Source: Acaryochloris marina MBIC11017
Lineage (GTDB): Bacteria; Cyanobacteriota; Cyanobacteriia; Thermosynechococcales; Thermosynechococcaceae
Length of the DNA stretch: 32,000 nt
Assembly (NCBI RefSeq): GCF_000018105.1
Contig: NC_009932.1
Coordinates: forward strand, 60,001 to 92,000
Direction: 5' to 3'
Of the stretch, positions 1,652 through 30,868 are shown piece after piece. The notes under the pieces are model-generated. The model saw nothing but the letters and a program-made list of their open reading frames with translations. It was not told the DNA's origin and did not search any database. Both the position numbers and the translations under genes were made by a program. Each line of letters starts with the position of its first letter. Position 1 is the stretch's first letter.

Positions 1652-1681
1652 TTGCACCTTTAAAGCCATCTTACCTATGTT
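1652..1681 (+). promoter_or_regulatory. conserved promoter-like box, copy 1 (TTGCAC-N18-TATGTT)
   Basis: TTGCAC at 1652-1657 and TATGTT at 1676-1681, with an 18-nt spacer CTTTAAAGCCATCTTACC matching the other five copies. The box is intergenic, and ATG 1714 follows 32 nt later. Confidence 0.55.
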
Positions 1682-1713
1682 TCAACCATCCCCCTTTCGG
1701 AGATTGAATCCTC

Positions 1714-2370
1714 ATGCTATCCCCATGCCTTCAAACCGCACGGCACTATGCCCATAAACATGGACCACCCTGGTCAGCTCCCCTACTCTGCATCCTTCTC
1801 ACCCTCTGCCCCTTTATCCTCCCCCTCCCCCCAGGCACTCAGATCGCAGGGCTAGAGATTATGGCAATGGTTTGGTCCACCGCCCTCTTCCTCCACCTCT
1901 ACCAAACGCTCAACATCCAAACCAAGCTGGGCCTCTATCTCTTCTTCTCCGGGATGATCGCCCTAACCCCATCCATGGTGAAAGCCCAAAACGTCGGCAA
2001 TGCCCCCTCCAGTGCTTGTAACTCCGGTTTCTTCCTGATCGGCCCCATGCTCGGAGCCGTGGATACCTCCTTGGGCTGGTTTCTGGGTGGCGTCCTCGCT
2101 TACTCCCTTTGCGCCTTTATGATTGCCCTGATAATTGTCTTCTTCCTCGTTGTCATTGTCGGTTTAGTGATGGCTGGGGCAGAATCCCACAACAGCAAAC
2201 GCACCCTGTTTGAAGTCCTCTCCCAATACCTGAACGTGATCATCACCATGATGGTGATCGCCTCCTTGGTGACCGTCTTTAACCTGCAATTGAGTAATAA
2301 CGGCAACGCCGCTCCCATCCCCGTCGGTGGACAGAATCAGCCCCAAGGCGCAACCTCCGTACTGAACTAG
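1714..2370 (+). CDS. small polytopic membrane protein; VirB2/TrbC pilin-like candidate (218 aa)
   Basis: GGAG lies 11 nt upstream of the ATG. A long leader ending ...TPSMVKAQ is followed by 2-3 hydrophobic helices. The gene sits directly upstream of the VirB4-like gene. The assignment is topological and positional only. Confidence 0.5.
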   Translation: MLSPCLQTARHYAHKHGPPWSAPLLCILLTLCPFILPLPPGTQIAGLEIMAMVWSTALFLHLYQTLNIQTKLGLYLFFSGMIALTPSMVKAQNVGNAPSSACNSGFFLIGPMLGAVDTSLGWFLGGVLAYSLCAFMIALIIVFFLVVIVGLVMAGAESHNSKRTLFEVLSQYLNVIITMMVIASLVTVFNLQLSNNGNAAPIPVGGQNQPQGATSVLN

Positions 2371-2381
2371 GAGGTTGAGTC

Positions 2382-5300
2382 ATGAACCAGACCGAACAGA
2401 TTGAAAAAGAACTGCGCTACGGCAAAATCAACCCCTACATCGGCCCCACCCAATTCCAACTCCTGAGTGGACAGCAGATCATCACCCTCGCCGCCAGTGG
2501 CTGTATCTGCTTTATCCTCGGATTCTCCATTGGCTGGTTTATGGCCGCATTTCTATGGCTGGGCATCTTTGTCCTCACCGTATTGGCCCTGGGAAAAGAC
2601 TACTCCCGCATCTTCGCCCGTATGAGCAAACAGCGACGGTACTACAGTGACCGTCCCAACTATCAAGTCAAAGCAGGAATCCCCCTGATGGTGATTGAAC
2701 TACCTGAACCCTTCAAACTCAGTCAGCTTTTCCGTAGACAAACTAAGCAGAAAACCTTAAAGAAAATAGAACCCGAATTTGACCTGAGAGCCTATGGAGA
2801 AATGCTCCTCGGTGAAGACATTGGTTTTTACCTCGTCCATCAAGATAAACAGGACCGAGCCATGGTGATCTTCGGATTCACCCTCCAAGGCATCGACCCC
2901 ACCCTGTCAGAACAAGAAGCCATGGACTGGCTTCAAGCCATCGTCATGGCCCTCCAGAAAATCCCTGGCATCGAACTCAAATTCTTCTGGGACGTGGAAG
3001 GCTCTGCAGATCAAGTCCTTTTACATCAACATGATCTCGTCACCCACCATGACCTCGACCCCCTGAGTGAAAAGCTGATTAAAAGTGAGGCCCAAGTCGC
3101 CGTTGATTTAGCCGCAGACGGTAAACTCGTCCATTCCGTCATCCGGGTCTATGCCAAATACAGACTCAGCCTCGCTGATGACTATGCCGTCAAAGAAGAC
3201 CGCTTAGATAAGCTCCTGGCCCATACCCAGCCCCTAGTCGGCACCTTCCAAGAGTATCTCAACCCCCAACCCGAAGGCTTTAGCTCCAAACAAGCCTGGG
3301 AGAAAGTCTTAGACCGAGCCTATCAAGCCGGATATATTCCCACCGCCAAAGCGTTAACTCAAATGGGTGTCAAACCCCAGCCCATGACCAAAGAAGACCT
3401 GTGGGCCATCGACTGGGAAGACACCCATGCAGAACCCGCTGACCCCTGCCCCCAATCCATTACCTACAGTGAAGCGGGCCTCTCTCCCTTCAGCGAGAAT
3501 CAGCCTCTGCCCTATCACATCCTCGGAGAACTGTTCAGCCCCGAACGAGGGTTACCCGCCGTACCCACCCCCTACCTCTACACTCTCTATCACCCCATCA
3601 AGAATCAATGGGCTGCCCTCGTCAAAATCAATCAGCTCAGCACCTACAACAAGATCGATAACTTCCTCTCTATTGGCTATATGAAATTTCTCCTCCAAGC
3701 CCTAGAGGGATTTCATGGCTATCGCCTCATCTCAGAAATCACCCAGATTGAACCCGACTCCCGCCTGAAGCTCGTCAACTCCGCCATCAAAGAACGCAAC
3801 CGCAAAGCCATCGATGCTCAACTGCTCCACAGCACCCGCAACGTCCAAGCAGAAGCCGATGTGAATGAATTAGTGGATGCCTCCCGTGAACTCAGCTCCG
3901 GTCGCTGGCCCTTAAAAGTCAGCCTCGGTATCTGGGTCTATCGCAAAGATAAAGCCAGCCTTACCGCTGCTGTCCAAGACCTAATTCGCCGCTTGCCCAC
4001 CAGCAAGACCGAGCAAGTCAGCAATCACCTCATGACCCACTGGATCTCCAGTCATCCCTTCCACTGGCAAAGCCTGTTCTCCAAGCCCCAACTGCGGCGA
4101 GAAGAATATCAATGCAATCAGGGGGTTCCCCTGATGCCCCTCGTCCATCCCCAGACCATTGATCAGCAGGGCATCCCCTTTGTCTCCAGAGGCGTTGCCA
4201 TTCCCGTCCATCTCAACACAGCCCTGAAGAAGAACCTGATTGCCATCTTTGGACCTATGGGGGTAGGTAAGTCCGTATTGATGAACCGGATGATCCTAGA
4301 GAACATCATCCATCGCATCTTTACCGTCGTCATTGATGTGCCCCCCGGCAACGGCAAGAGTACCTATCAGCCGTTTATGATCCAGCTCCAACGAATTGGT
4401 GTCTCCGCAGCCTACTTCGACGTTAAATCCCACATCATCAATGGACTCGATGAAATCGATACAAGCTGGGCAGGTGACCTCCTCAGTGTCCAACTCCTCA
4501 AGAAAATCAAGCAAAACCATCTCAGTCTCCTGCGGGCCTTAGTCCTCGGTGACGACCTCGACCATCCTCTCTACAAAACCATCAAATCTGTCCTGGCCCT
4601 CAGCTATCAAGACTGGCGGGCCTTAGCGGACATTGACCAGCGCTATCGCATTGCCAAAGCTGCTGCTTTCGGCTCAGAAGACTCCAAACGAATGCCTATC
4701 CTCCAAGACTTCGTAGATTACTTTCCCCAGTGGGTAAAGCAATACAAACAGGATAAAGACTGTGAGGATTTAGAACTGCAGGCCATCGCCATGATCCGCA
4801 CGGAACTGGAAGCCGTCCTCACCACGGACCTCGGAGCCTCCATCAATGGCATTAACACCTTTAACTTCGACCTCCAAACCCTTGTCATTGGCCTGACGGA
4901 CTTGCAAGACCCCCAAGAGAGCGTCATCTATTCCATGGCAGCGATTAACTTGATGGAACTCCAGTCCTTTCGTTATCCCCGCTCCGCCATCTTTGGCGAT
5001 GAAATCTCCACCACCTTTAAGTACCGCTCCATCTCCATCCGCTTCGCTGAGACCTGCACCCGAGGCCGCAAAGAAGCCAAGAACGTTGTCATCGCGGGCA
5101 CAGAGGAAAACACCCTTGTCCAGTCTGAGGGAGGCCGAGATATCCTCAGCAACCTGGATGCCGTCTTCTATGGACACTGCAATCCCACCGCCGTAGAGAA
5201 CGCCGCTAAGCATCTGCGCCTCAAGCCCGAAATCCTCTCCAAATATGTCCGAGCCGAATATGCCCCCAACCTGGCGGAACTCTGCACCTCCTGGTATCTG

Positions 5301-5507
5301 CGTAAAGGGAATCAACACTATGAGCTGCTGTTCTACACCTCAGCCCTGATGATTGCTCTTGTCTGCACCCAACCCGAAGAAACCGCAGCCAGAGACCGGA
5401 TCCTGGCTCTCTATCCCGATAATCCCCTCCAGGGCTATATCAAATTTGGGCATCTGCTGAAACGGGCTTACAAACTCAACCTGCCCCTTTCCCTTATCGG
5501 AGCCTGA
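2382..5507 (+). CDS. virB4: VirB4/TrbE-family type IV secretion ATPase with N-terminal VirB3-like membrane segment (1041 aa)
   Basis: AGGAGG RBS. Two N-terminal TM helices (ITLAASGCICFILGFSIGWFMAAFLWLGIFVLTVLAL). Walker A GPMGVGKS at nt 4251-4274, Walker B-like AIFGDEIS, then RGRKEAKNVVIAGTE. Size and layout are typical of VirB3-VirB4 fusions. Confidence 0.8.
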   Translation: MNQTEQIEKELRYGKINPYIGPTQFQLLSGQQIITLAASGCICFILGFSIGWFMAAFLWLGIFVLTVLALGKDYSRIFARMSKQRRYYSDRPNYQVKAGIPLMVIELPEPFKLSQLFRRQTKQKTLKKIEPEFDLRAYGEMLLGEDIGFYLVHQDKQDRAMVIFGFTLQGIDPTLSEQEAMDWLQAIVMALQKIPGIELKFFWDVEGSADQVLLHQHDLVTHHDLDPLSEKLIKSEAQVAVDLAADGKLVHSVIRVYAKYRLSLADDYAVKEDRLDKLLAHTQPLVGTFQEYLNPQPEGFSSKQAWEKVLDRAYQAGYIPTAKALTQMGVKPQPMTKEDLWAIDWEDTHAEPADPCPQSITYSEAGLSPFSENQPLPYHILGELFSPERGLPAVPTPYLYTLYHPIKNQWAALVKINQLSTYNKIDNFLSIGYMKFLLQALEGFHGYRLISEITQIEPDSRLKLVNSAIKERNRKAIDAQLLHSTRNVQAEADVNELVDASRELSSGRWPLKVSLGIWVYRKDKASLTAAVQDLIRRLPTSKTEQVSNHLMTHWISSHPFHWQSLFSKPQLRREEYQCNQGVPLMPLVHPQTIDQQGIPFVSRGVAIPVHLNTALKKNLIAIFGPMGVGKSVLMNRMILENIIHRIFTVVIDVPPGNGKSTYQPFMIQLQRIGVSAAYFDVKSHIINGLDEIDTSWAGDLLSVQLLKKIKQNHLSLLRALVLGDDLDHPLYKTIKSVLALSYQDWRALADIDQRYRIAKAAAFGSEDSKRMPILQDFVDYFPQWVKQYKQDKDCEDLELQAIAMIRTELEAVLTTDLGASINGINTFNFDLQTLVIGLTDLQDPQESVIYSMAAINLMELQSFRYPRSAIFGDEISTTFKYRSISIRFAETCTRGRKEAKNVVIAGTEENTLVQSEGGRDILSNLDAVFYGHCNPTAVENAAKHLRLKPEILSKYVRAEYAPNLAELCTSWYLRKGNQHYELLFYTSALMIALVCTQPEETAARDRILALYPDNPLQGYIKFGHLLKRAYKLNLPLSLIGA

Positions 5508-5510
5508 GCC

Positions 5511-6656
5511 ATGAACCGTAAACAAGCCGTACTGTTTTCTCTAATCATTGTCTTCTCTAGCCCTCAGCTTACCCAAGCCCAGGTTTTCTCTGATGACATA
5601 ACCCTACCGACGAATGCCCCCACCTTCCCATCGGGTGTTCCCAATACCACCGGGGATGTCAGTGTCACCCAGGATAATCCCTTTGACGATAGCCCCAAAC
5701 CCAACTTCCTCAAAGACATCTTCTTGGGTACGAGCAACTATAGACCGATTCATTCCAGTACCTTGAAGTTGTTCGATATCCTCGGTAAAGCCCAGAAAGG
5801 CTTACAGACCTATAAGAACGTCAAAAAAGTCTATGACGGCATCCGAGGTAAGAATGCCAACAGCATTACCGATGGGGTGTTCAACGTCCTCGAACAGTAC
5901 GGCATCATTGACCCCCAAAAAGCCACCACTGCCTCGAATCGCTCCACCCCTATCCTCATCGGTCAAGGGAATCAAGGTCCCGCCTATGCCACAGCTGGCT
6001 CAATCGGAGCCTTAGAGCTAGAACCCAAAGAACCCTATGAATGGCGGGTCAAAGCCTTAAACGAAAACATCGTCTATAAAAACGCCATTCAAAAGACCGG
6101 GGACTTTATCTACTCCCCTGAAGCCCAAGAAATCCTCAAAGTCCAAGATCAAGTCGCCGCTGATGCCAGAGACGCTGCCGCTGCCGCTGCTCAAGGAGAG
6201 CTAGAATCCGTCCTCGCCTCGACCCAAGTCAAAGACCAGAGCATCTATGCCAGCACCGTTGTTGGTGAATACGGCACCTCAGCTCAAAGCGCTAAATCCA
6301 CCCAAGCCGTCAACAAACTTGAGACGAAGCAAAACACCGAGATTGCCAACATTCTGGCGGGCAATGCCTTTCAACTGAATGCCATCAACGAATCAATGGT
6401 CCGCAACACTTCAGCCTTGGGCAATATCGTCACTACCCAATCCATCCTCGTAGACAAACAGACCGTCTCCCAATACCTAGATGCCGCTCAACTCCGCCAG
6501 TCAGGTCAAATCTTCACCACCCTCAACAACCAATATTCCTATGAAAAGCGCAAGGACATGTATCGCCACCTGGCCGCAGCCGACACCAGTAACCTGCTTC
6601 ATTTCCCAGGTTTGGTGGAACCTCAACCGAATCTTTCAGGACAAACGCAACCGTAG
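5511..6656 (+). CDS. secreted protein, function unknown; VirB5/TrbJ-position candidate (381 aa)
   Basis: The ATG lies 3 nt after the VirB4-like stop. Signal peptide MNRKQAVLFSLIIVFSSPQLTQAQ. The C-terminal half is Ala/Gln-rich and helix-like. The VirB5 analogy rests on position only. Confidence 0.6.
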   Translation: MNRKQAVLFSLIIVFSSPQLTQAQVFSDDITLPTNAPTFPSGVPNTTGDVSVTQDNPFDDSPKPNFLKDIFLGTSNYRPIHSSTLKLFDILGKAQKGLQTYKNVKKVYDGIRGKNANSITDGVFNVLEQYGIIDPQKATTASNRSTPILIGQGNQGPAYATAGSIGALELEPKEPYEWRVKALNENIVYKNAIQKTGDFIYSPEAQEILKVQDQVAADARDAAAAAAQGELESVLASTQVKDQSIYASTVVGEYGTSAQSAKSTQAVNKLETKQNTEIANILAGNAFQLNAINESMVRNTSALGNIVTTQSILVDKQTVSQYLDAAQLRQSGQIFTTLNNQYSYEKRKDMYRHLAAADTSNLLHFPGLVEPQPNLSGQTQP

Positions 6657-6699
6657 ACTGATCATTGCCTTAATCTATGGCATCCTTATCGTCCTGCAT

Positions 6700-7959
6700 A
6701 TGGCAAGCCATGCCCATGCCGACTTTGCCGAAGACCTGATTAGCGATCTAGAACCGTCCGTTGCCCATGACGCATTTTGGGATGACCTCTGGAACGCCAC
6801 CTTTGACCGCTCCACGGTTATCAGTGGTGATACCCGAAGAATTGCCTTTGGATCCGTGAGCACTGTCGTTCGTTGGGTGACCCTGATTGCCCTATTCGTC
6901 GTCCTCCTCCATTACGGGTCAGGAATGATGTTCAGCGGCACCAGCTTGCGAAAAGGCAATGAATTCACCATCAAAAGTGTCTTTCCCGTCGTCATCATCC
7001 TCGCCCTTCTCGCCAATCAGTTTGCCGGGGTCCATGCCGTGGGGCTGTTCGTCAATCAGGCCCGCTTAGGGGTTATGGGAGAAGCCTATGCTCAAACAGA
7101 ATTCGCCACCACCTTCCGCAGTGCCATTAAAGACGCCTATCTGTCAGAGAAGTATCGAGAGAGCCTCGCCTTTCGGGCCAAGCAATGCAACCTGATTGAA
7201 ACCCCCATTACCACCATTCCTTCCCTAGAAGAACCCACCAACCCCGAGACGCCCCTGACGGATGAACAGCGTCAGTACTACAAAAAGCTTCAGTGCATCC
7301 AGTCCATGGTCACCTATATCCAAAGTCTGCAAGCGCAAGTGGCAGCAGAATGTGAAAAAGGCTGTGTGGGCACCAACGTTGCCATCGTCAAAGATCTCAA
7401 AAAGTATGGAGTCGATGGGGTTCCTGGAGTCGTAGCCGAGAACTTGGATATCTTCGTCATCCCCATTCAAAAATTAGGAGAACTGGCCGCTGATGGAGCC
7501 AGACATGGAGCCCAAGAAACCTATCGTCTGATCTTCCGAGCCATTCAATGGGCCTGGACCTCGTTTCTAAATATGGGATTCTATCTCACGGCAGTGGGAG
7601 CACCCATTACCTACGCCATATCCCTAATGCCCACCAAGCGACATTTTCTATTTGATTTGAACCTGTTCGCCCTGCTGATGTTCTCCCTAGCAGAGTTTGC
7701 CAATATCTTCTGCATTGGGATAGTGGCCCTGATGCTGCAACGACCCACCCTAGTGGACTTAGGTGGGTATATCTTCCCTTTGACCTATGGATTACTTGCA
7801 CCGATTGTGTCCGGTTCAATCTTCCTGGGTGGGTTTAAGGCCGCAGCCAGCTTTAGAGGGGGTGCCTTGGGTGTTGCCAGTGCAGCAGGAGGCATCGCTG
7901 GAGGGATTGCCACCTCAGTGATGATCTCAGCCCGGAACCGCCGAGAGCAATATTACTAA
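6700..7959 (+). CDS. polytopic inner-membrane protein, VirB6/TrbL-like candidate (start uncertain: 6541, 6658 or 6700)
   Basis: The frame is open from 6481. At least six hydrophobic helices are present (e.g. VVRWVTLIALFVVLLHY, FLFDLNLFALLMFSLAEFANIFCIGIVALML) plus a Gly/Ala-rich tail. The first non-overlapping ATG is 6700, but a signal-like segment is encoded upstream of it. Position after the VirB4- and VirB5-like genes matches VirB6. Confidence 0.55.
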   Translation: MASHAHADFAEDLISDLEPSVAHDAFWDDLWNATFDRSTVISGDTRRIAFGSVSTVVRWVTLIALFVVLLHYGSGMMFSGTSLRKGNEFTIKSVFPVVIILALLANQFAGVHAVGLFVNQARLGVMGEAYAQTEFATTFRSAIKDAYLSEKYRESLAFRAKQCNLIETPITTIPSLEEPTNPETPLTDEQRQYYKKLQCIQSMVTYIQSLQAQVAAECEKGCVGTNVAIVKDLKKYGVDGVPGVVAENLDIFVIPIQKLGELAADGARHGAQETYRLIFRAIQWAWTSFLNMGFYLTAVGAPITYAISLMPTKRHFLFDLNLFALLMFSLAEFANIFCIGIVALMLQRPTLVDLGGYIFPLTYGLLAPIVSGSIFLGGFKAAASFRGGALGVASAAGGIAGGIATSVMISARNRREQYY

Positions 7960-7965: not shown

Positions 7966-7995
7966 TTGCTGCTCAAAAGACATCTTGCCTATGTT
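7966..7995 (+). promoter_or_regulatory. conserved promoter-like box, copy 2
   Basis: TTGCTG at 7966-7971 and TATGTT at 7990-7995, with an 18-nt spacer CTCAAAAGACATCTTGCC. A GGGAGA RBS and ATG 8026 follow. Confidence 0.55.
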
Positions 7996-8025: not shown

Positions 8026-8505
8026 ATGCCCTTGTACCCAACCATCGCCGTTGTATTTATCGTCTTTGCCGTGTTGCTGATCATCATTCGTGGGGTCTTT
8101 GCAGATCTGACTCCCTTGGGTGGGTTGATGGCCTGCACCGTTCTCACCCTATTTGCGGGTTACCACCGCATCTTTGCTGGGGCAGATCAGCTTGCAGGGG
8201 TGGACTCCTTTTTCACCTTGGGCTTTGGATTGATCATTTGCCAGCTCTTTGTCCCAGACTTCCGATTCTGGTGGTCAGACTTCCGGTTTATCTACGGGAT
8301 GACGGTGCTGTTCTACTTTGCCTTCTGCTGGACCTTTGACCATGTGTACATCCTTTGGTTTTGGTTCACGGGATTCGTTCTGCTTCTCCTGGCAGTCCAA
8401 CTGCTGTTTAGCGCAGTGTCATCTGGGGGGCGTCCACCCCTGCATCCTGATTTAGATAAGGATTTCATGCTGTATGAAGACGAATGGCTCTTTGACGATG
8501 ACTAA
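8026..8505 (+). CDS. small integral membrane protein (about 4 TM), function unknown (159 aa)
   Basis: GGGAGA RBS. Four hydrophobic helices, an internal DFRFWWSDFRF repeat and an acidic C-terminus. First gene after box copy 2. Confidence 0.6.
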   Translation: MPLYPTIAVVFIVFAVLLIIIRGVFADLTPLGGLMACTVLTLFAGYHRIFAGADQLAGVDSFFTLGFGLIICQLFVPDFRFWWSDFRFIYGMTVLFYFAFCWTFDHVYILWFWFTGFVLLLLAVQLLFSAVSSGGRPPLHPDLDKDFMLYEDEWLFDDD

Positions 8506-8907
8506 GAAAATATCTCGCTTCCTCCCCCTATTAGTTGTTTCAGCCTTACTGCTGAATATCCTTGTCTGTTTTTCCTGGTTTACCCAAGGAGCCAGAGCGC
8601 AAGCCCCCTCTCAGGTGTATATCCAGACTGACTCCGGGTTAGTGGTCAAAGGTCAGCCCGTGGACCCCCTCTATCGCAGTGATGAAGTCGTGATGCGGTT
8701 TGCCCAGGAGTTTGTCTCCGTGGCCTACACCTGGCCGATGAATGGCGAGGGTCACCGTGAAGGCAAGCTGATCTACCCCCTGCCTATGTACACCCAAGCT
8801 TTCAAGATCCATCCTGATATTCGTTCCCAGTGGTTAGGGCGTCAGCATGTCGCCTATGCCAAAGCCAAAGATCCCTTTGCCAACTATGTAGGCCAGTCCC
8901 ACCATAC
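8498..8907 (+). pseudogene. 5' part of IS-disrupted bitopic membrane gene (VirB8/TrbF-like candidate)
   Basis: ATG 8498 overlaps the stop of the upstream gene (ATG 8474 is an alternative). Short N-terminus, one TM helix (FLPLLVVSALLLNILVCFSWF), then a soluble domain. The reading frame runs into the IS left IR and stops inside it at 8924-8926. Confidence 0.6.
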
Positions 8908-10571: not shown

Positions 10572-10604
10572 AACAACCCAGAGAGCAAAGACAAGGAGCG
10601 AGAC

Positions 10605-15985: not shown

Positions 15986-16004
15986 AATGGGCTGAAAAAG
16001 AAAG

Positions 16005-21291: not shown

Positions 21292-21429
21292 AGCGCTGAT
21301 TAAATTACCACACAGCGGCTTTCTTTCAATCCCTCCAATACTTCTACTTCCTACTCCGCTAGGTAGTGGTTTGTGATGGTTTTCGACTGGCCAATGCCCT
21401 TCGGAGAGACAAGAACTGCCAAGTAAAGG

Positions 21430-21478: not shown

Positions 21479-21483
21479 TATCT

Positions 21484-22140: not shown

Positions 22141-22202
22141 TTTACCCGATAGCAAAGCCGTTCAATATCAACCCTCAATCACCACAATCAGGAGTCAAAC
22201 TC

Positions 22203-23048
22203 ATGAATCAGAAAACGGTCCTAATCACAGGGGCAAGTTCAGGATTTGGTAAACTGGCCGCCCTGAAGTTTCAGCAATCTGGCTGGAATGTGGTGGCTAC
22301 AATGCGTTCTCCGGAGCGCGAAACGGACCTCACACAACTTGAAAATGTAGTTGTAACCCGACTCGATGTAACTGAACCAGCCAGTATTGAAGTCGCGGTT
22401 AAATTGACAATCACCACCTTTGGCACCATTGATGTGCTGGTTAATAACGCAGGCTACGGTGGCCACTCCCTGTTTGAGCAAGCAACAGACGAAAACATTC
22501 GGGCAATGTTTGAAACCAACGTCTTTGGCGTCATGAATGTGTCCCGTGCCGTTTTGCCGTTTATGCGTCAACAAAAATCAGGCTGCATCATTAACGTAAC
22601 GTCCATGGCAGGTATGCTCGCCGCACCCACCATCTCAATTTACGCCTCAACCAAGCATGCTGTTCAGGGCCTCACGGAAGGTATGGCCTTTGATTACAAG
22701 CCATTTAACATTCGAGTAAAAAGTGTTCTACCTGGGGCCTATCCGACGACCCGGTTTAATGCCAATACCAGCGACATCCTTAAAGCTGGAGATGCCGAAC
22801 TAGTGGCTCATGCTGAGAAGTTGCATACTCACTTGCAAGACGTCGCTCAGAAGATGGCCAACCAGGGTGGCCAAGTTGCTGATCCTCAAGAAGTAGCCGA
22901 CAAAATTTTTGAATGTGCGACCCAAGACACCCCCATCAACAACCCGGTCGGTTCTGATGCAGAAATGCTAGCAGGGATGATCGCTAAAGCTGACTCTCGC
23001 CAGGCCTTTATCGACCAAGTTACCCCATTACTAATGCCGCCAGTGTAA
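22203..23048 (+). CDS. short-chain dehydrogenase/reductase (classical SDR, 281 aa)
   Basis: AGGAG RBS. TGASSGFG cofactor motif, NNAG, a catalytic Ser in the VTSMAG context, and YASTKHA (YxxxK). Confidence 0.9.
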   Translation: MNQKTVLITGASSGFGKLAALKFQQSGWNVVATMRSPERETDLTQLENVVVTRLDVTEPASIEVAVKLTITTFGTIDVLVNNAGYGGHSLFEQATDENIRAMFETNVFGVMNVSRAVLPFMRQQKSGCIINVTSMAGMLAAPTISIYASTKHAVQGLTEGMAFDYKPFNIRVKSVLPGAYPTTRFNANTSDILKAGDAELVAHAEKLHTHLQDVAQKMANQGGQVADPQEVADKIFECATQDTPINNPVGSDAEMLAGMIAKADSRQAFIDQVTPLLMPPV

Positions 23049-23112
23049 TAAGTCACCCGCCAACACAGTCATCACACGATTCAACGTCATCACGCTCATC
23101 AAGAGGTCAGAT

Positions 23113-23988
23113 ATGTTTGGCAATATGGTTTCCAATATGATGGTCAAGCCATCCCAGTCACCGTTGTTTGACAGTCCTACAGACTATGGACTCAACTACG
23201 AAAATGTGGAGTTCAAAGCGCGTGACGGTGTAACCCTGCGGGGCTGGTTGATCAAAGGAGGCACAGACCGCGTGATTGTGCAGAGCCATTTTGGTGTGCA
23301 ATGCAACCGTGGTGGCTGGTCTCCCAAAGGCAGAGGGCCGATCGCACCCTGGAAAGAAGACATCAAGTTTTTACGCCAGGCCAAATACCTTGCTGAGCAG
23401 GGCTATTCCGTATTGATGTATGACCTGCGGGGGCATGGAGAAAGCGACCTAGGTACGATTCCGTGGGTGAGCTGGGGGCCTGAAGAAGCTAAGGATGTCG
23501 TGGCAGCAGTAGACTTTGTTTCGGCTCGACCTGAGTTTGCCAATGCCAGTGTGGGGCTGCTTAGTATCTGCATGGGGGCTGCTTCCACCACCTATGCCTA
23601 CGGCTTAGCAGATGGGTTAGCCAGTCGTGACAAGGTAAAGGCGCTGGTTAACGTGCAGCCCCTGCTTTACAGCTACTTCGTCAAAGCACTGGGCATGCCT
23701 GGATTTATGGAGCGCGCTGGGGCCAAGGTCTCCCGCGATCGCCTTGGCTTCAATATGGCTGAGCCCAACTTTATCAACGATGCCCCTAAAATTTCAGTCC
23801 CCACATTGGTCCTTCAGAACCAGAACGATCCCTGGACCAATCTAGACATGGTGCGGTCCTACTACGATGCCCTGACCGTGGAAAAAGATCTGCGGATGCT
23901 GGACTTAGAAGCCAGCCGGTTTGCGGGCTACGACTATCTGGGACGGTCTCCAGAAGCGTTTGTGGGCTGGTTTGATCAGCACATCTAA
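23113..23988 (+). CDS. alpha/beta-fold hydrolase, apparently with a Cys at the nucleophile elbow (291 aa)
   Basis: YDLRGHGESD loop typical of alpha/beta hydrolases. The nucleophile-elbow position reads S-I-C-M-G (Cys codon 23569-23571) rather than GxSxG. A late NDPW segment is consistent with the acid-residue loop. Confidence 0.7.
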   Translation: MFGNMVSNMMVKPSQSPLFDSPTDYGLNYENVEFKARDGVTLRGWLIKGGTDRVIVQSHFGVQCNRGGWSPKGRGPIAPWKEDIKFLRQAKYLAEQGYSVLMYDLRGHGESDLGTIPWVSWGPEEAKDVVAAVDFVSARPEFANASVGLLSICMGAASTTYAYGLADGLASRDKVKALVNVQPLLYSYFVKALGMPGFMERAGAKVSRDRLGFNMAEPNFINDAPKISVPTLVLQNQNDPWTNLDMVRSYYDALTVEKDLRMLDLEASRFAGYDYLGRSPEAFVGWFDQHI

Positions 23989-24449
23989 TACGACCAGCAA
24001 CCTCAAGCGCCAAACCCCGGTGAATCCTTGGCTGAATATGTCAGGTGATTGCGTCTTGGTCAAGGTCTCAATCAGAAAGAGTTAACGGCTAAAGCAAATG
24101 TGCATCTGCAGAGTATTGGCAAGATTGAACGGGGGAAGACCACTAAACTTAATCACAAAACCAAGAATGGTCTTGCTTATGCCCTAGGCGTGCCAGCAGA
24201 GTACTTTGAGGCTGTATGTCGAGGGATTGCTGTGGAGGCGGCTTCTCGATTGAAGTTCTGCCAACTTGCTGAGTGCTGGGAACGATCCCGGATCCATTAC
24301 GGATGCCTCTAAGAGCAAAATACTGTTTTGCTTGTGCTGCTGAGCTAAGAAGTTGGTGTAGTCAATGCAATGAACCGATGCTTTCCCTCAAACATCGGTT
24401 CTGTTCCTTCTGTGGTCAAGCTTATAAATCCACTCCAGTCAACACATAA
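23989..24449 (+). pseudogene. degraded XRE-HTH / zinc-ribbon regulator gene
   Basis: The frame reads ...PNPGESLAEYVR-TGA(24046-24048)-LRLGQGLNQKELTAKANVHLQSIGKIERG (HTH). It stops at 24310-24312, and the Cys-rich tail (...CSQCNEPMLSLKHRFCSFCGQAYKS*) continues in another frame to 24449. There is no ATG upstream. Confidence 0.5.
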
Positions 24450-24464
24450 ATCGTGGTCGCTAGA

Positions 24465-25496
24465 TTATGACATTTCACGTACAATGTCGGGAGTTTTCCC
24501 CGTCCAGAGATGAAAGGCTCGGAAGAATGAACTGGGTTCACTATAGCCAAGCAGCAAGGATATTTCTGCACTTGAATAGGGTGTATTAACAAGATAGTGA
24601 TTAGCCAATTCCGCCCTTAAGCTGCTCAGTTCTTGCTTAAAGCTTGTATTTTCATCTTGCAGCCGTCGCTGTAAAGTGCGTGTGCTGACTGCCAGCCTTT
24701 TCGCGACATCAGCCATCGTGCATTGACCGCTGGCAAGAATTTCCATTAGACAAGCCCGAACGCGATCCCGAAAATGCGCATCTACTTCTAGATGCTGCAT
24801 ACGCTTGTGCAATTCAGGCTCGAAAATCGACCACATCCCAGCATTAGCGGTTAGAAATGGCTTTTGCGCATCTGCCGCTGAAAAGACAACACCATCAAGC
24901 TCACCGTTGTCCAGAGGTACACCGAAGAAAGCCTCATATTCTTTTGAACCGGGAATCGTGAAAGTACTTTGCACCTTAAGTGGAATAATGAAAGCGCGGG
25001 TCGCCAATCGAGTCAAATGCACGAGTAGCGCTAGCTCCATAGCAATGAGAGATTGGGGGATCGGTGGGTGTCCCGGAAGCTCTCCCAGGGCGATCTGAGT
25101 GTCATGGATAGTTTGTGTAACATCAAGGCGAAAAGGGCCAATCAATCGTTTATATAAGGCTAATCGCTGGATACCCTGATTGAGATTTTCGCTGCAAATA
25201 CAGGCAAAAATAGGTGGGCTGAAAGACTCTACGGTGATAGATTGAGCAATCCGTAACGGAAAAGTTGGATCCTTTAATAAAAGAGTTTCTAACCCTTCCC
25301 AAAAACGAAAATACTCCGTGGAAGTTAGGGCAGGAGTAGGCTGGCAGAATAGGTCTAGGGGTAAATTCGCTTGACGTAATATCGCCTGGGGAGACACACC
25401 CAAATCTTTCAGCAAGACTTGCCAGCCCGAATCCAATACGAATTTATGGTTTGTTGGGTTCATTGAAACGATATCCCTGCACAGTAGTCGAGCCAC
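24465..25496 (-). CDS. AraC/XylS-family transcriptional regulator with N-terminal AraC-type ligand-binding domain (343 aa; ATG 25463 is an alternative start)
   Basis: C-terminal double HTH: DVAKRLAVSTRTLQRRLQDENTSFKQ...AEISLLLGYSEPSSFFRAFHLWTGKTP. Last gene of the minus-strand SDR-SDR-AraC string. Confidence 0.85.
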   Translation of the reverse strand: MARLLCRDIVSMNPTNHKFVLDSGWQVLLKDLGVSPQAILRQANLPLDLFCQPTPALTSTEYFRFWEGLETLLLKDPTFPLRIAQSITVESFSPPIFACICSENLNQGIQRLALYKRLIGPFRLDVTQTIHDTQIALGELPGHPPIPQSLIAMELALLVHLTRLATRAFIIPLKVQSTFTIPGSKEYEAFFGVPLDNGELDGVVFSAADAQKPFLTANAGMWSIFEPELHKRMQHLEVDAHFRDRVRACLMEILASGQCTMADVAKRLAVSTRTLQRRLQDENTSFKQELSSLRAELANHYLVNTPYSSAEISLLLGYSEPSSFFRAFHLWTGKTPDIVREMS

Positions 25497-25499
25497 CAG

Positions 25500-26318
25500 T
25501 TAGCCAAATGCTCGGTTAATTATGAACTCGAAGGTTCCGTCACCTAACCATTTTCTGATAAACATCAGTGGCTTGGCCATGGAGCCTTTGACATATCTGC
25601 GCTTGGGGTTCTTGGAATTAACAGCTTCGACAAAAACCCTAGCTAAAACAATCGGTTCTGTGGCATTATCCATAGCCTTAGGATCTGCCATCATCCTGAG
25701 GTAAGGATCCATCTGTTTTTGATATGCACTGCTGTCGTAATACTTTTGCAATTGCTTACCTACGACATCGCCAAATTCAGTTTTGATACCACCAGGCTCC
25801 ACTAAGACAACCTGAATATTAAATGGCTTTGTCTCAATCCTTAGACAATCGGACCAGCCTTCCAAGGCATGTTTCGTAGCGTGGTACCAGGCTCCTAGCG
25901 GTGTATAAATTTTCCCACCCATAGAAGAGGTGTTGATAATCCTGCCTGACTTCTGTTGGCGCATATAGGGCAGCACGATTTGAGTCAAATGAGCCAATCC
26001 AAACAGGTTTACGTCAAATTGGTATTGTGCATCGTCTAAGGGTACATCTTCTACTGGTCCGTATAAGCCAAATCCAGCATTATTGATCAAGACATCAATT
26101 CGTCCTGCATCGGCAATAATTTGGTCAACAATCTTCTGATTATTTTCGCGATTGGTAACATCCATCTGTACCGGGATAATCCCTAGAGATCTAAGCGATT
26201 CCATGCGCTCAATCCTTCTTGCCCCGGCATATACTTTGTGGCCCTCTTGGGCAAGTAACTTAGCGGTCTCCAGCCCCATACCTGAAGATGCACCAGTGAT
26301 CAAGATGACTTTGCTCAT
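25500..26318 (-). CDS. short-chain dehydrogenase/reductase (272 aa from ATG 26318)
   Basis: AGGAGG (26324-26329 on the coding strand) lies 5 nt upstream of ATG 26318. TGASSGMG, NNAG, YHATKHA. Confidence 0.9.
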   Translation of the reverse strand: MSKVILITGASSGMGLETAKLLAQEGHKVYAGARRIERMESLRSLGIIPVQMDVTNRENNQKIVDQIIADAGRIDVLINNAGFGLYGPVEDVPLDDAQYQFDVNLFGLAHLTQIVLPYMRQQKSGRIINTSSMGGKIYTPLGAWYHATKHALEGWSDCLRIETKPFNIQVVLVEPGGIKTEFGDVVGKQLQKYYDSSAYQKQMDPYLRMMADPKAMDNATEPIVLARVFVEAVNSKNPKRRYVKGSMAKPLMFIRKWLGDGTFEFIINRAFG

Positions 26319-26341
26319 TATTATCCTCCTCAATGATTAGA

Positions 26342-27181
26342 CTAAAATTCACGTAGGGATTGACCCACTTGTTGTTGCAGAACAGGACTGAGATTCGTTC
26401 TGACGTCGTATCGAACATCCCCTTCGTAACGGGGAGCATATGTTGCATAAGCAGCGGCCAAAGCTTTTTGTTTTTGATGTAACATCACCACGTTGTAAGC
26501 ATGGCTGACAACATAGAATTCATTGGCTTTTAACTGAGGTATTGTTATACTCACAAACTGATCAGTCGGCATACCATACTGCATGTTCTCGGGTGGCCCC
26601 AATTCAGATACAACAAAGCCTGGACAAATTAAACTAACGTCAATAAAGTCTGGTAGCTCTTCTCTCAGTGAATGAGTAAAGGCCAGCACTCCATGCTTAG
26701 TAGCAACATAGGCACCATTAAAAGGCGTCCCATGGAAAAGAGAGTTTTCCGAGCCAATGTTATAGATAGCTGCTGGAGTGCCTTGATCAACAAAGCGCTT
26801 ACCAAATACTTTGGAACCAATGACGACACCAAACAGATTGACGTTGAAGATGGCATGAATATCTTCTAGGGGCATGTCTAGAACTGGCGCGTGATGCACC
26901 ATCATGCCAGCGTTATTGATGAGTACATCCACTTTGCCAAAACTATCCCAAGCAAAGTCGGCCAGTTTTTCAGTGTCTTCCAAGCTACTGGCATCTGCGA
27001 GGATAGCTTTGGCTTCAATGCCATTATTATTGAGCGCTGTTATCGCTTCTTGTAGTCGATTTTCTCGCCGACCACTAATCACAACCTTTGCGCCTTCTTT
27101 GCCAAATGCCTTGGCATAACCAAAGCCGATTCCGGTTGTTCCACCAGTAATGACGATGACTTTATTACTAAAGTTATCCAT
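26342..27181 (-). CDS. short-chain dehydrogenase/reductase (279 aa)
   Basis: TGGTTGIGFG, NNAG, YVATKHG. First gene of the minus-strand string. Confidence 0.9.
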   Translation of the reverse strand: MDNFSNKVIVITGGTTGIGFGYAKAFGKEGAKVVISGRRENRLQEAITALNNNGIEAKAILADASSLEDTEKLADFAWDSFGKVDVLINNAGMMVHHAPVLDMPLEDIHAIFNVNLFGVVIGSKVFGKRFVDQGTPAAIYNIGSENSLFHGTPFNGAYVATKHGVLAFTHSLREELPDFIDVSLICPGFVVSELGPPENMQYGMPTDQFVSITIPQLKANEFYVVSHAYNVVMLHQKQKALAAAYATYAPRYEGDVRYDVRTNLSPVLQQQVGQSLREF

Positions 27182-27454
27182 GTACTTTTACCTTACGGTT
27201 GAGATTATTGTTGTGAGATGGAAAGCTGCAAGTGCTTTCGTTTAGTGATGTTGCTCCCAGTCACTTTTGGATTGAGAGCTAATTCTGATTTCTTGAGAAC
27301 AGCATACGGGCTGAAAGTTTTTTGGGGAGTGACATAATGCGTCAATTTTGTAGCATTACACGCCAACTTTTTATACTCTCTAACCAACAGAGGAAAGCAA
27401 CAAGGAATATCGTTCTGTTCAATACTTTTGAGCAATCCTTGCTACTTGGCTTAG

Positions 27455-27648
27455 AACATCAATGACATCACGGGCATTGAGCAGAGTGGTTTCAAGTTGA
27501 AAGTGATTCCTTGGTTTCACAACTCTTTGCCACACCCCTATCTCACAGAGCAGTTGAAGCGATTTGGAGATTTTGTCTTGGACTTAGAGACTGTACCTGT
27601 ACCTTTTGAACAAGCCATTCAACTACCGATTAAGTTTGACGAAATCTA
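27455..27648 (+). pseudogene. Tn3-family transposase C-terminal remnant (right arm)
   Basis: The frame is open from the TAG at 27452. It ends ...YLTEQLKRFGDFVLDLETVPVPFEQAIQLPIKFDEI*, identical over the last 35 residues to the left-arm remnant but on the opposite strand. There is no start codon. Confidence 0.55.
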
Positions 27649-27850
27649 GTCTAGGCAAAGCTTTTCGGAGCTGTTTGACATCCTATAAGGTGATCAAGAA
27701 GTGAAAAAACTAGATCTCTAAAAGTCTTTCTATATATAGTTTCTGGGACCATCTTGAATGTTTTTACACGTATCTCGGCCAGACCTCAGAAATATTCAAA
27801 ATCGGGGAAGTAACTAAGAAAAAATGTAGGTATCGAGTTAAAAAGATTGT

Positions 27851-27883: not shown

Positions 27884-27913
27884 TTGCACCCCACCATACA
27901 ATCTGCCTATGTT
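27884..27913 (+). promoter_or_regulatory. conserved promoter-like box, copy 5
   Basis: TTGCAC at 27884-27889 and TATGTT at 27908-27913, with an 18-nt spacer CCCACCATACAATCTGCC (the most divergent spacer). An AGGA RBS and ATG 27945 follow. Confidence 0.5.
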
Positions 27914-27944
27914 CCCGTTAGCCCTACCTAGCAGGAATTTTCAT

Positions 27945-29747
27945 ATGCCCCAACAAACCACCCAACCCTCACCAGAATACAGAGGGTTCCACAACATTCC
28001 CATCAACTATGGCTGGCTCACTGTGGGCTTTCTCAGCATCGTCTTTATCATCTGGCTCAGTACCCTCAATCGATGCAGAACTCAAATTCCAGAGGGAATG
28101 CCAAATGCCAGAGAAGCCACCCCCAAAGAAATCAAAGAAGGGTCCAACAAAGCCAAACTGATCCGAGCTGAAGGCGACATCGAAAAGTCCGCGATCCAGC
28201 TCAACCCAGAAACAGGTATCACCCTTGGTCCCATTAATCCCGGTGGAATTGTCTCAGGTAAAAGCGGTGGCGGAAAAACTGAAAGCTTTGCCCTTCGCCT
28301 CATCGAATCCCTCGCGGAAGATGGAGCCTCCCTGATGATCAGTGACATCAAAGGCGAACTCATGGAGAAAACCGCTGCCTATCTTCATGACTTGGGTTAT
28401 GACCTTCACTTTCTTGCCCCTGGCATCAAAGAAACCTCAAAGTACTCCGCAGATAAACTCCCCTTCTCCGGTGGCCTCAACCTCCTCGACCTGATTGCCA
28501 ATGATGAAGACCTCGCAGGCACCCTTGAACTAACCCGAGGCATCAACATCAATGCTGCCGAGAACTATGAACGCAGACATCAATACTTCGGTCCCCAGTC
28601 TGACCTCCTACAACAGTCCATGATGCTCGGAGCCAAAAGCAGTGAATATGCTGACATGCTGATGGTCTGGGAACTGATGGGCCTCAACAACATCGCCGAA
28701 CGCTTAGCCGCAGCCAAAGACAACGACAAGATGGGGAAAGGACTCCCCTACTTTATGACTCACCTAAGCCGAGGACTGAGGACCGTCGCCAACAGCTCCA
28801 GCAGTGCAAACCCTGGCCCCACCATTCAATCCACCGCCAGCCAGAACTGGGTACAATTTCTCGACCCCGAGATTGCCAAATGCATGACCAAGACCACCAT
28901 CCCCTTGGACCTCACAGGCAAACAAGCCATCTTCTTCCGCATCAATGAAGACCAGCTAGAAGCCACCAAGACCTACCTCGCCGCCGCCCAACATATGCTG
29001 ATCAAGCGCAACATCAGCTATACCCGCAGACGCCAGAACAACCTAGGCGTGATCATCGAAGAAGCCAGTTTCACCCTCTATCCCAACGCCAAGAAATGGT
29101 CAGCCCTCGGACGGCAGAATGGTCTATTGATGTGGATGGTTTATCAACAAGAAGAACAGATGCAGGAACTTTATGGCGAGAAGCGCTGGGAAAGCATCGC
29201 CGCCAACCTGCCGACCCGGATCTATATGAACCAAGGATCTTATAAGAGTAATCAAGTCATCGCCAACCGCTTAGGCAAGAAAACCATCATCAGCACCACG
29301 GAAAACGAGTCCTTTGGTTCCAACCATTCACGGAGTCGCAACGACAGCTTTCAGCAAGTGGATTTGATGACGGCAGACCGTTTAGATGCCATGAAGAAAC
29401 CGGGGCAATGCATCATCGTCGATGCCTCCACCAACGGTCACCCGATCATCTATGAGAAGAAACAGCTTCCCTATAACGAGAACAGCCGTCAAGCCAGGAT
29501 AAGGAAGCAGTGTAAAGTCGCATGGCGAGAGGACATCCTACCCAGCCTCCAAGAAGAACATCAGAAGCACTTTGGAGAGATCAATATCCAAGTAGCAATG
29601 GAGAACAGAGCCGCAGCCGCAGAGGATCTACTCCCACCCCCAGAGTATTACGCCATTGAAGAAGAAGCCGCAGAAATTGATGCAGAAGAAGGCACTGAAG
29701 ACGCAACTGATGTAAACGAAATGGAGGAGATGGACGATGCAGCCTAG
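27945..29747 (+). CDS. virD4: VirD4/TraG-family type IV coupling protein (600 aa from ATG 27945)
   Basis: N-terminal TM helix (WLTVGFLSIVFIIWLS). Walker A GKSGGGKT at nt 28257-28280, Walker B-like GVIIEEASF, and an acidic C-terminal tail (EEEAAEIDAEEGTEDATDVNEMEEMDDAA). The upstream ATG 27909 overlaps the -10 hexamer and is disfavoured. Confidence 0.8.
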   Translation: MPQQTTQPSPEYRGFHNIPINYGWLTVGFLSIVFIIWLSTLNRCRTQIPEGMPNAREATPKEIKEGSNKAKLIRAEGDIEKSAIQLNPETGITLGPINPGGIVSGKSGGGKTESFALRLIESLAEDGASLMISDIKGELMEKTAAYLHDLGYDLHFLAPGIKETSKYSADKLPFSGGLNLLDLIANDEDLAGTLELTRGININAAENYERRHQYFGPQSDLLQQSMMLGAKSSEYADMLMVWELMGLNNIAERLAAAKDNDKMGKGLPYFMTHLSRGLRTVANSSSSANPGPTIQSTASQNWVQFLDPEIAKCMTKTTIPLDLTGKQAIFFRINEDQLEATKTYLAAAQHMLIKRNISYTRRRQNNLGVIIEEASFTLYPNAKKWSALGRQNGLLMWMVYQQEEQMQELYGEKRWESIAANLPTRIYMNQGSYKSNQVIANRLGKKTIISTTENESFGSNHSRSRNDSFQQVDLMTADRLDAMKKPGQCIIVDASTNGHPIIYEKKQLPYNENSRQARIRKQCKVAWREDILPSLQEEHQKHFGEINIQVAMENRAAAAEDLLPPPEYYAIEEEAAEIDAEEGTEDATDVNEMEEMDDAA

Positions 29748-30174
29748 TCAAGACCAGACCTTAGAACGGGATGCTGAGAAAGGAATGCACCTGGCCGAAG
29801 AAGGCGTAGAGAAAGCCGCCAGATTGACGGCTGAGACTCTACGAATACTCAAGGCACAACTCGCTAAATACAACAATCGCGTGTCCATCAAATTTGAGTC
29901 ACGAGCCGACGATATCGCCAACGTCAAAGCTGGGATGCAGGGAGGACTCAAGGGAGTACAGCTCAGGCAGATTGTCAGGGCGGGTGACTCGATCAAGGAA
30001 GTAGCTCAGCGAACCCAGTCAGCGGAGAAAGTGAAGCTGTATGAGGACCGGGTATTGTCCAGGGCACAACATGAACTGAATCGAGAGAAGGTAGAACATC
30101 GTCGATCTCAGCAAACGGATCAGTCCCAGAAGCAGAGTCAAAGGCAGTCTCAGTCACAGGATTTGGGGTTGTAA
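29737..30174 (+). CDS. small charged helical protein with SQ-rich tail, function unknown (145 aa)
   Basis: GGAGGAGA RBS. The ATG overlaps the end of the coupling-protein gene by 11 nt, consistent with translational coupling. The protein is highly charged with a C-terminal QSQKQSQRQSQSQ stretch. Confidence 0.6.
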   Translation: MQPSQDQTLERDAEKGMHLAEEGVEKAARLTAETLRILKAQLAKYNNRVSIKFESRADDIANVKAGMQGGLKGVQLRQIVRAGDSIKEVAQRTQSAEKVKLYEDRVLSRAQHELNREKVEHRRSQQTDQSQKQSQRQSQSQDLGL

Positions 30175-30182: not shown

Positions 30183-30377
30183 TTAATTTCCAAATTTACA
30201 TGCTTGTGGATTATAAATAGGATGGCATCCGATGGCATGTAATTCGGCATTATGACTTTGCTCAATATTGAGCTTGTCACCGAAAGACTTTTCTGTGATG
30301 TTTATTGAATTATTTATAGACATGAAGCCCATAGATAGACTCAACGCACTGGCAAGCCCAACTAAGCAGTATTTCAT
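30183..30377 (-). CDS. small secreted Cys-containing peptide (64 aa), paralogue A
   Basis: Signal-like N-terminus MKYCLVGLASALSLSMGFMS shared with ORF 30446-30628. AGGA lies 12 nt upstream. The region is AT-rich and the ORF is convergent with the upstream operon. Confidence 0.4.
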   Translation of the reverse strand: MKYCLVGLASALSLSMGFMSINNSINITEKSFGDKLNIEQSHNAELHAIGCHPIYNPQACKFGN

Positions 30378-30445
30378 GAGGTGTTAATCCTTTGTTATTT
30401 AAGTAACGGCAAATTCAAAGAAGGAAATATCTTGATTCACAGCAA

Positions 30446-30628
30446 TTATGGGTAAGGATCACAAGGGAAAAAAGTACAGATAAATGCAACCTGATTAATG
30501 TCTTGCGGATAATCAAATTTAAATGTTCTTTCGTCAGATTCTCTAGCTATTTCACTGGTGAAATTTATTGCTGTTAAACCTAGAGAAAGTCCAATAGTGC
30601 TTGCAAGGCCAATTAAGCAATATTTCAT
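30446..30628 (-). CDS. small secreted Cys-containing peptide (60 aa), paralogue B
   Basis: N-terminus MKYCLIGLASTIGLSLGLTA. The first ~20 codons are similar to paralogue A at nucleotide level, while the mature parts differ. Confidence 0.4.
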   Translation of the reverse strand: MKYCLIGLASTIGLSLGLTAINFTSEIARESDERTFKFDYPQDINQVAFICTFFPCDPYP

Positions 30629-30838
30629 GAGATTAAAACTCTAAAACGATTTAGAAAAACGGTATCACTGCATCTAGAAAAATCATCAATATTTTACGTT
30701 TATTGATACTAGCAACTTATATGAATTTCGATTGCCTATTTTTCTCTCTGCCCCAGAAAATTCTTTGATTTAGGTCTACGATCTCTCACCATCAGCACGA
30801 TAGATAACAGTCTTCAAACCCAATCCTCACATAACGAT

Positions 30839-30868
30839 TTGTCCCTCACAGGTCATCTTGCCTATGTT
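30839..30868 (+). promoter_or_regulatory. conserved promoter-like box, copy 6
   Basis: TTGTCC at 30839-30844 and TATGTT at 30863-30868, with an 18-nt spacer CTCACAGGTCATCTTGCC. A GAGGG RBS and ATG 30897 follow. Confidence 0.5.

Follow-up and report, generated by a model that had tools for sequence, protein, structure and literature searches.

The conjugation region of an Acaryochloris (cyanobacterial) megaplasmid raises the question of why the same short, promoter-like sequence recurs in front of one secretion-system transcription unit after another, and of what might read it. The window, that is the whole stretch of 32,000 nucleotides (nt) of A. marina MBIC11017 analysed here, had previously been described from its letters alone (hereafter the sequence-only reading) as holding six copies of this box, at 1652, 7966, 15291, 17147, 27884 and 30839, and all six were found where that description had placed them. 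Our analysis leads us to view the box as a backbone promoter class of Acaryochloris conjugative megaplasmids, probably read by a sigma factor encoded on the plasmids, an explanation whose chances we regard as evenly balanced. The window copies, including a seventh in front of the open reading frame (ORF) at 766, are the following:

705-736, + strand: box A, the seventh copy, decayed, with the -10-like sequence TACCCT; predicted start about 743, before ORF 766
1652-1681, + strand: box B; predicted start 1688; precedes 1714-7959
7966-7995, + strand: box C; predicted start 8002; precedes 8026-11981
15291-15320, + strand: box D remnant; predicted start 15327
17147-17176, + strand: box D; predicted start 17183; precedes 17211-20411 and 20422-20802
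27884-27913, + strand: box E; predicted start 27920; precedes 27945-29747 and 29737-30174
30839-30868, + strand: box F; predicted start 30875; precedes the gene at 30897, a conserved gene of about 500 codons that continues past the window edge

The box comprises 33 bases, and each of the six copies contains the 30-nt stretch from TTG to TATGTT on the + strand. Four of them match the consensus proposed earlier with at most three mismatches (none expected in shuffles), while the copies at 1652 and 27884 diverge more from it with their register unchanged. As had been claimed, all six are intergenic and on the + strand, TTGCAC and TATGTT lie 18 nt apart in every one, and a start codon follows the hexamer after 32, 30, 34, 34, 31 and 28 nt, respectively, that is within 28-34 nt; it likewise holds that the accessory genes of the window lack a box. 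With a weight matrix made from the six copies, these score 42-59 bits, as compared to 12.4 bits for the highest-scoring other site on the two strands of the window and maxima of no more than 11.9 bits in 20 shuffled windows. Paralogous copies share 75% identity within the box, whereas their flanks, at 28% and 33%, are at random level. At 15291, the copy stands at the front of a 138-nt duplicate (15289-15426; 82% identity) of box D and the 5' end of the peptidase gene behind it, which agrees with the description of the start at 15355 as a remnant.

The secretion genes of the window are 85-89% identical to those of pREC4 of A. marina MBIC10699, the A. marina S15 plasmid and pMB06 of Acaryochloris sp. 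'Moss Beach' (L001, L002 and L003, respectively; labels of this form are used for regions of other replicons throughout). Each box is kept before the orthologous gene in these three, and orthologues of box C are also present on L008 and L014, two contigs of Acaryochloris metagenome-assembled genomes (MAGs). ORF 766-1629 constitutes a seventh secretion-system transcription unit that the earlier description had overlooked: its box A reaches 12 bits with the six-copy matrix and 27 bits with a matrix of 37 sites, and its orthologues are full boxes in L002, L003 and L066 (57-61 bits). L001 and one pREC1 copy show the TATGTT-to-TACCCT change of box A as well. Between plasmids, the homology of units A, D and E starts sharply at ATTTG and runs through the leader into the gene, and the flank upstream of the box is unalignable; unit F retains a short conserved stretch just 5' of the box. 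No conserved sequence upstream of -38 was detected in the interplasmid comparison.

To describe the motif, a profile was built from 37 distinct copies belonging to at least 14 paralogue groups. The pattern ATTTG-N12-CA-N3-T-N-CCTATGTT is nearly invariant: ATTTG, CA, the single T and CC are invariant or nearly so, and TTG as well as TA and the final T of the hexamer are the same in all 37 copies. The base after the single T is mostly G, and CC and TATGTT follow. Conservation is moderate across the 12 nt after ATTTG and, for the box as a whole, is lowest in the upstream half of the spacer. The seventh nucleotide after TATGTT (position 40) is a purine in 37/37 copies and its neighbours vary; because the copies span at least 14 paralogue groups, descent alone is unlikely to account for this purine. 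One weak extra site, at L064 46495, has a C there. Box E always reads CCCACCATACAATCTGCC, and every paralogue retains its own spacer variant across plasmids. Paralogues thus hold their own variants, and it follows that the copies are not homogenised and that the positions they share are under selection. Of the conserved spacer proposed earlier, the conserved positions outside the hexamers stand, but the upstream half varies, and neither a dyad nor a direct repeat is consistently present.

The motif is bipartite, directional and non-palindromic, and its span from -38 to -7 is the contact range of an RNA polymerase holoenzyme. It has the layout of the sigma-70 family, namely TTG, a spacing of 18 nt in every detected copy and TAnnnT; moreover, the boxes are co-oriented with the next gene, at short distance from it, and have a purine at the expected start. 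Measured against TTGACA/TATAAT, TTGCAC agrees at 3/6 and TATGTT at 4/6 positions, which amounts to 7/12 with an 18-nt spacer by our own count, and a scan for the sigma-70 consensus requiring 9/12 listed none of the boxes. The fixed orientation and distance, the homology that starts at the box, the invariant TTG and TA...T and the purine at +7 all accord with the earlier view of the box as a promoter, and we consider it very probable that the box has promoter activity. Two other ways of reading the elements were tried and rejected. For a sigma-54 promoter, TTGCAC-N13-TTGCC is wrongly spaced and without the GG. Taking CAnnnT as the -10 element, with a start inside TATGTT that would make the leader hairpins fully RNA, would put this element a mere 9-11 nt from ATTTG/TTGCAC and would fail to account for the invariant purine at 7 nt past TATGTT.

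An ATG lies within TATGTT, at 1677, 17172 and 30864 of the window as well as in the other boxes. After boxes A, D and F it starts mini-ORFs of four codons, e.g. ATG TTT CCT CTG TAG, and that of box E shares the reading frame of the coupling-protein gene. The ATG is probably incidental. In addition, boxes A and D have leader sequence in common.

The sequence-only reading had named a generic dispersed repeat as what would speak against a promoter, and our searches show instead a box confined to one plasmid family and always co-oriented before gene starts. A blastn search with the box against 72,556 PLSDB plasmids gave 6 matches, all from Acaryochloris. Three of the six plasmids carry a secretion cluster of the window type, and the other three (pMB04, pMB08 and pREC1) carry a sister cluster, referred to as type 2, with an ATPase of only about 30% identity. 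The regions of the latter that were retrieved show one or two boxes per sister cluster, all at the cluster head; these boxes lie within remnants of window-type units A and B and were therefore gained by recombination. Degenerate-pattern scans of 185,579 species genomes (one per species) and of a metagenome collection yielded chance-level hits only, except for three Acaryochloris MAG contigs; the hits outside Acaryochloris are single, have low matrix scores and lack type IV secretion neighbours. In the papers found on Acaryochloris plasmids and CyRepA1, neither such a motif nor a role for the sigma factor considered below is described, and a look for 5'-end data in the papers searched turned up none.

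The box had also been taken to define a compact regulon restricted to the secretion apparatus. This did not hold up in scans of complete pMB06 (140.5 kb), of pMB08 except 444 nt (89.7 kb) and of a further 50 kb of pREC4, in which additional boxes precede mobF, parM and other backbone genes:

L064 48140, L002 45979 and L003 44318: box before the MobF relaxase gene
L063 1745 and L064 45653: box before parM or a ParM-like gene
L061 1326, L063 3255, L064 44283 and L060 17077: box before other backbone genes

All additional boxes point the same way as the gene that follows. About 29-44 nt separate hexamer and start for mobF and the ParM-like gene of L064, for parM of pMB06 and for L063 3255 and L061 1326, and the annotated start at L060 17077 is about 80 nt away. 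None of the cargo genes in these whole-plasmid scans is preceded by a box. What the box marks, then, is the plasmid backbone, beyond the secretion apparatus.

A candidate for the reader is encoded by the plasmids themselves. All relatives carry a sigma-70-family gene, for a protein of 426-465 amino acids (aa), next to the CyRepA1 replication gene:

L001 8296-9576: sigma gene
L002 6306-7646: sigma gene
L003 4587-5942: sigma gene

Full-length orthologues of the sigma protein (42-100% identity) occur on exactly the six PLSDB plasmids that have the box. Among 5.8 billion proteins the family has about 22 members, all of the named ones being from Acaryochloris; boxes also occur on three further sigma-bearing contigs, two of NIES-2412 and one from a metagenome. 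L020, a type-2 cluster on a plasmid without a sigma orthologue, has no box. Regions 2, 3 and 4 are recognisable in the protein, and the region 4.2 motif S-x-E-R-x-R-Q-L, invariant among orthologues, fits the invariant TTG. The protein has a conserved C-terminal extension of about 180 aa with one hydrophobic segment; a C-terminal domain of about 140 aa surpasses the sigma part in conservation, and the protein may be membrane-anchored. A second connection comes from the head of the clusters, as the whole of the 766-1629 product is homologous to the C-terminal half of type-2 cluster head proteins (33% identity, E = 6e-35), one of which is the following:

L019 17536-19242: type-2 head fusion protein; the N-terminal half is a sigma-70 domain, then comes a hydrophobic segment

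Given this fusion and the homology of 766-1629, a sigma-like module is tied to the secretion system in two ways.

In the mechanism we favour, the box would be read by RNA polymerase carrying the plasmid sigma factor. The -35 region would be ATTTGCAC, followed after a spacer of 18 nt by the extended -10 element CA-N3-T-N-CC-TATGTT, and transcription would start at the purine 7 nt downstream of the hexamer, giving a leader of 22-28 nt. The box heads each type IV secretion unit, the coupling-protein unit and, on complete relatives, mobF, parM and other backbone genes, and the backbone would form a single sigma-dependent regulon, separate from host and cargo genes. We lean towards the view that some dedicated plasmid factor reads the box, because the match to housekeeping promoters is poor, invariant bases lie outside the hexamers and the box occurs only on sigma-encoding plasmids. 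That this factor is the plasmid sigma we hold with a little less than even confidence. The sequence-only reading had offered an alternative sigma factor as one option, and this option gains comparative support in that box and plasmid sigma gene are found on the same 6/72,556 plasmids, a correlation within one lineage. A more far-reaching version, in which the whole transfer-and-maintenance backbone is on a private promoter class, the reader is a membrane-anchored plasmid sigma, a divergently encoded XRE or RHH repressor acts as its gate and 766-1629 is a split-off outer sigma domain, is tentative and, taken as a whole, rather unlikely. If it were true, the state of the mating apparatus or of the envelope would be linked to backbone transcription.

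Several observations weigh against the sigma factor as reader. Its co-occurrence with the box is confounded by shared ancestry, as CyRepA1 and other backbone genes are likewise common to the six plasmids. Housekeeping sigma factors have the same region 4.2 motif, so the TTG does not discriminate, and the plasmid proteins fall into two subgroups that are 44-46% identical and differ in region 2.4, although their boxes are the same. For MBIC11017, the sigma gene is outside the window, whose edge falls just short of its expected position; we infer its presence on this replicon because window positions 145-710 match the sigma-XRE intergenic region and the XRE gene of pREC1. The scans reported above covered the sequence collections named there, with complete Acaryochloris chromosomes outside them. 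Finally, inverted repeats follow several boxes closely. At 17177-17201 (+ strand), directly after the -10 element of box D, there is a 10-bp stem followed by a T-rich run, which looks like a terminator, and similar repeats come after box A (739-762) and box E (about 27913-27937) and also at 15323-15343. Those after A, D and E are conserved, A and E each with one compensatory pair (a small sample), and they begin 1-3 nt past the hexamer, ahead of the predicted start; if transcription does begin 7 nt from the hexamer, half of their 5' arm would stay untranscribed. Perhaps the repeats function at the DNA level, or the start is nearer than usual.

The regulator that had been put forward for the box, the XRE-type protein encoded at 430-705, is part of a small locus whose features are:

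127-158, + strand: variant box, ATTTG-N12-GG-N3-T-G-CC-TACCAT, facing the XRE gene
430-705, + strand: XRE gene (Pfam HTH_26, E = 3e-8)
L003 6587-6772, L019 7952-8122 and L069 6358-6543: RHH_5 gene

The product of 430-705 shares 93% identity with that of the helix-turn-helix gene that pREC1 carries divergently from its sigma gene, and 45% with one in pREC4, and XRE/HTH_26 genes hold this position in the window, pREC1, pREC4 and NIES-2412. In L003, L019 and L069 the position divergent from sigma is taken by an unrelated CopG-like gene of the RHH_5 family, which is a non-orthologous replacement of one small DNA-binding protein by another. No XRE homologue was found on complete pMB06, on pMB08 (complete but for 444 nt) or in the L002 and L019 regions. 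As the box does not differ between replicons with XRE, RHH or neither, the spacer cannot be the operator of these proteins. The variant box lies where relatives have the sigma-XRE/RHH intergenic region, with TACCAT or TATCAT as hexamer, and scores low with the main matrix. Together with the stretch downstream of it (GCTCTCTAATCT, to about 215), it is conserved in L019, L022, L065 and L067, and its pattern also matches in L021, L002 and L066. Because this variant box points at the XRE gene, XRE seems to belong to the circuit, as a member, modulator or gate, and not to be what reads the box. That XRE 430-705 binds the box and controls the regulon, as had been suggested, is highly improbable: although it is a Cro/C1-type helix-turn-helix protein encoded directly 5' of the cluster, and its homologues adjoin the sigma gene in pREC1, pREC4, the NIES-2412 contigs and a MAG, it is missing from the replicons and regions just listed, RHH_5 replaces it with the boxes identical, and the box lacks the dyad symmetry of the type that XRE dimers use.

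A broader alternative retains the promoter fused to an operator that the sequence-only reading had preferred. Here the host sigma factor would use TTGCAC/TATGTT, and the spacer would bind a plasmid repressor or a class II activator that coordinates the backbone, in the manner of KorA/KorB, ArdK/StbA or SetCD/AcaCD on other elements. Global repressors or activators that act through one motif before backbone operons are the rule in well-studied plasmids and integrative and conjugative elements (PMC3937220, PMC4542580), a weak promoter with 7/12 matches would suit activation, and a small dyad, (A)CCT-N3-AGG(T), is indeed present in the upstream spacer half of several copies. However, this dyad has only 3-4 bp, lies in the least-conserved part of the box and is found neither in box E nor in the copies before mobF and parM. 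The invariant positions form an asymmetric set close to the -10 element, the sequence upstream of -38 is unconserved and no DNA-binding gene except sigma is common to all box-bearing replicons examined. The spacer is thus not operator-like, having no consistent dyad or direct repeat, and we judge the promoter-operator fusion to be unlikely.

It could also be argued that the boxes are ordinary promoters read by the host, whose similarity was inherited from a duplicated promoter cassette and calls for no dedicated factor. The box does duplicate together with 5' gene fragments (15289-15426, L001 34721 and L002 27689), and the leader sequence common to boxes A and D would fit such an origin. Yet the flanks of paralogues are at random identity against 75% within the box, each paralogue's variant is kept across plasmids with no ongoing homogenisation, and positions that stay invariant across at least 14 paralogue groups beside variable neighbours form a pattern of purifying selection; this explanation therefore appears quite improbable to us. 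The least probable case, together with XRE as reader, is that the box is not a promoter at all and represents a dispersed repeat or miniature inverted-repeat transposable element, a recombination site or an element acting at the RNA level. Boxes do sit at backbone-cargo junctions, remnants flank cargo inserts and some copies are trailed by inverted repeats, but there are neither terminal inverted repeats nor target duplications, the box invariably faces the gene that follows at a fixed distance and is absent beyond this Acaryochloris plasmid family, and, with its upstream flank unconserved, it is unlikely to be situated inside a longer conserved transcript. As compared to these alternatives, we favour the reading of the box as a backbone promoter class with a plasmid sigma as its probable reader.

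The genes behind the boxes identify the apparatus that they head:

766-1629, + strand: cluster gene 1, 287 aa, hydrophobic segment at the N-terminus
2382-5507: VirB4-like ATPase, within unit 1714-7959
17211-20411: VanY and M23 peptidoglycan (cell-wall) hydrolase, behind box D
27945-29747: type IV coupling protein, behind box E

The VirB4-like assignment of 2382-5507 is weak by profile (E = 3e-5), and a PDB sequence search with the protein gave 0 matches; its homologues are found on 126 plasmids, for which all named genera are cyanobacteria, and some are annotated as DUF87 or as type IV secretion system proteins. The coupling protein matches TraG-D_C (E = 2e-25) and the VirD4-like CD1115 family (E = 2.5e-31), the latter with 109 bits, under the curated cut-off of 250 bits. 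In relatives the MobF relaxase follows, past the window end. The components of a conjugative type IV secretion system are accordingly present as coupling protein, VirB4-class ATPase (by a weak profile) and relaxase (in relatives).

The cargo of the window consists of an insertion sequence (IS), a DUF29 gene, a methyltransferase gene and a block of TetR, SDR, hydrolase and AraC genes. The IS at 8905-10302 encodes a DDE_5 transposase and has 35-nt inverted repeats. It breaks a secretion-cluster gene of unit C, of which aa 1-137 correspond to 8498-8908 and aa 135-225 to 10296-10568, and given this split gene the window's copy of the secretion system may be defective. The block at 20952-27779 (TetR, SDRs, hydrolase, AraC) is bracketed by 244-nt inverted repeats that are 89% complementary, pREC2 and pREC1 carry segments about 98% identical to it, and the whole resembles a composite mobile unit that has entered between units D and E. 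Its TetR gene has a promoter at 21430-21466, TTGACA-17-TATTAT, that matches the consensus at 11/12 positions, unlike the box promoters; it ends 7 nt before the GTG, and the mRNA would be leaderless. Duplicates of a box plus the 5' end of its gene lie beyond cargo inserts (window 15289-15426, L001 34721-34990 and L002 27689-27760), suggesting recombination at or close to boxes as the route by which cargo comes in. There are also segmental duplications, 11933-12649 versus 16004-16716, and 12745-12922. The former pair comprises the 3' end of the gene 10605-11981 and a 164-aa gene (paralogues at 12155 and 16222), and a decayed box-like site is found at 12668-12707.

How does this arrangement compare with known ones? 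Heat-shock (sigma-32) and other group 3 promoters with a CC-extended -10 element may offer a parallel in layout, namely TTG at -35 and a -10 element preceded by conserved C's, CCCCATnT as compared to CCTATGTT in the box. The box differs from them in its longer spacing, and evidence of a shared sigma lineage stops at group 3-like features. We know of no conjugative type IV secretion system for which dependence on a plasmid sigma factor has been demonstrated, and we are aware of almost nothing on the regulation of cyanobacterial conjugative plasmids or on the activity of their divergent type IV systems. In SXT/R391 integrative and conjugative elements and IncA/C plasmids, motifs that replace a missing sigma-70 -35 element are bound by the FlhDC-like class II activators SetCD and AcaCD (PMC4542580). 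The likeness consists in one motif at a fixed position before transfer operons and other mobility functions, which makes for an element-wide regulon (PMC4542580); in contrast, the Acaryochloris motif spans both the -35 and the extended -10 element, and the sole factor common to its carriers belongs to the sigma family. The window proteins scanned gave no Pfam match to the FlhC or FlhD families, a search that did not extend exhaustively to the relatives. R388 (with ArdK, StbA and KorA) and RP4 (with KorA and KorB) have strong, consensus-like promoters that are shut by repressors binding repeats (PMC3937220). As in these plasmids, regulatory sites are common to the promoters of the backbone and not to those of cargo, and transfer, partition and establishment are coordinated (PMC3937220), whereas the Acaryochloris promoter is itself non-consensus (7/12), its conserved positions are asymmetric and it has no consistent repeat. 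SigN of Bacillus subtilis pBS32 is a parallel in that a large plasmid has both a sigma-70-family gene and a distinct promoter consensus (PMC6751061); unlike SigN, the Acaryochloris protein, a predicted sigma factor, has a conserved C-terminal extension of about 180 aa with a hydrophobic segment. None of these closest systems matches in mechanism what we propose for the box.

Taken together, the box provides a ready map of the backbone transcription units for the whole plasmid family, separates backbone from cargo in silico and offers a clean test system, with seven promoters in 32 kb, one candidate sigma factor and one candidate repressor. The fusion of a sigma-family domain and a membrane segment to a secretion-cluster protein hints at signalling from the envelope to transcription. 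Should the link to the sigma factor be true, this would be, to our knowledge, the first conjugation system run by its own sigma factor, and it would supply an orthogonal pair of promoter and sigma factor for cyanobacterial engineering.

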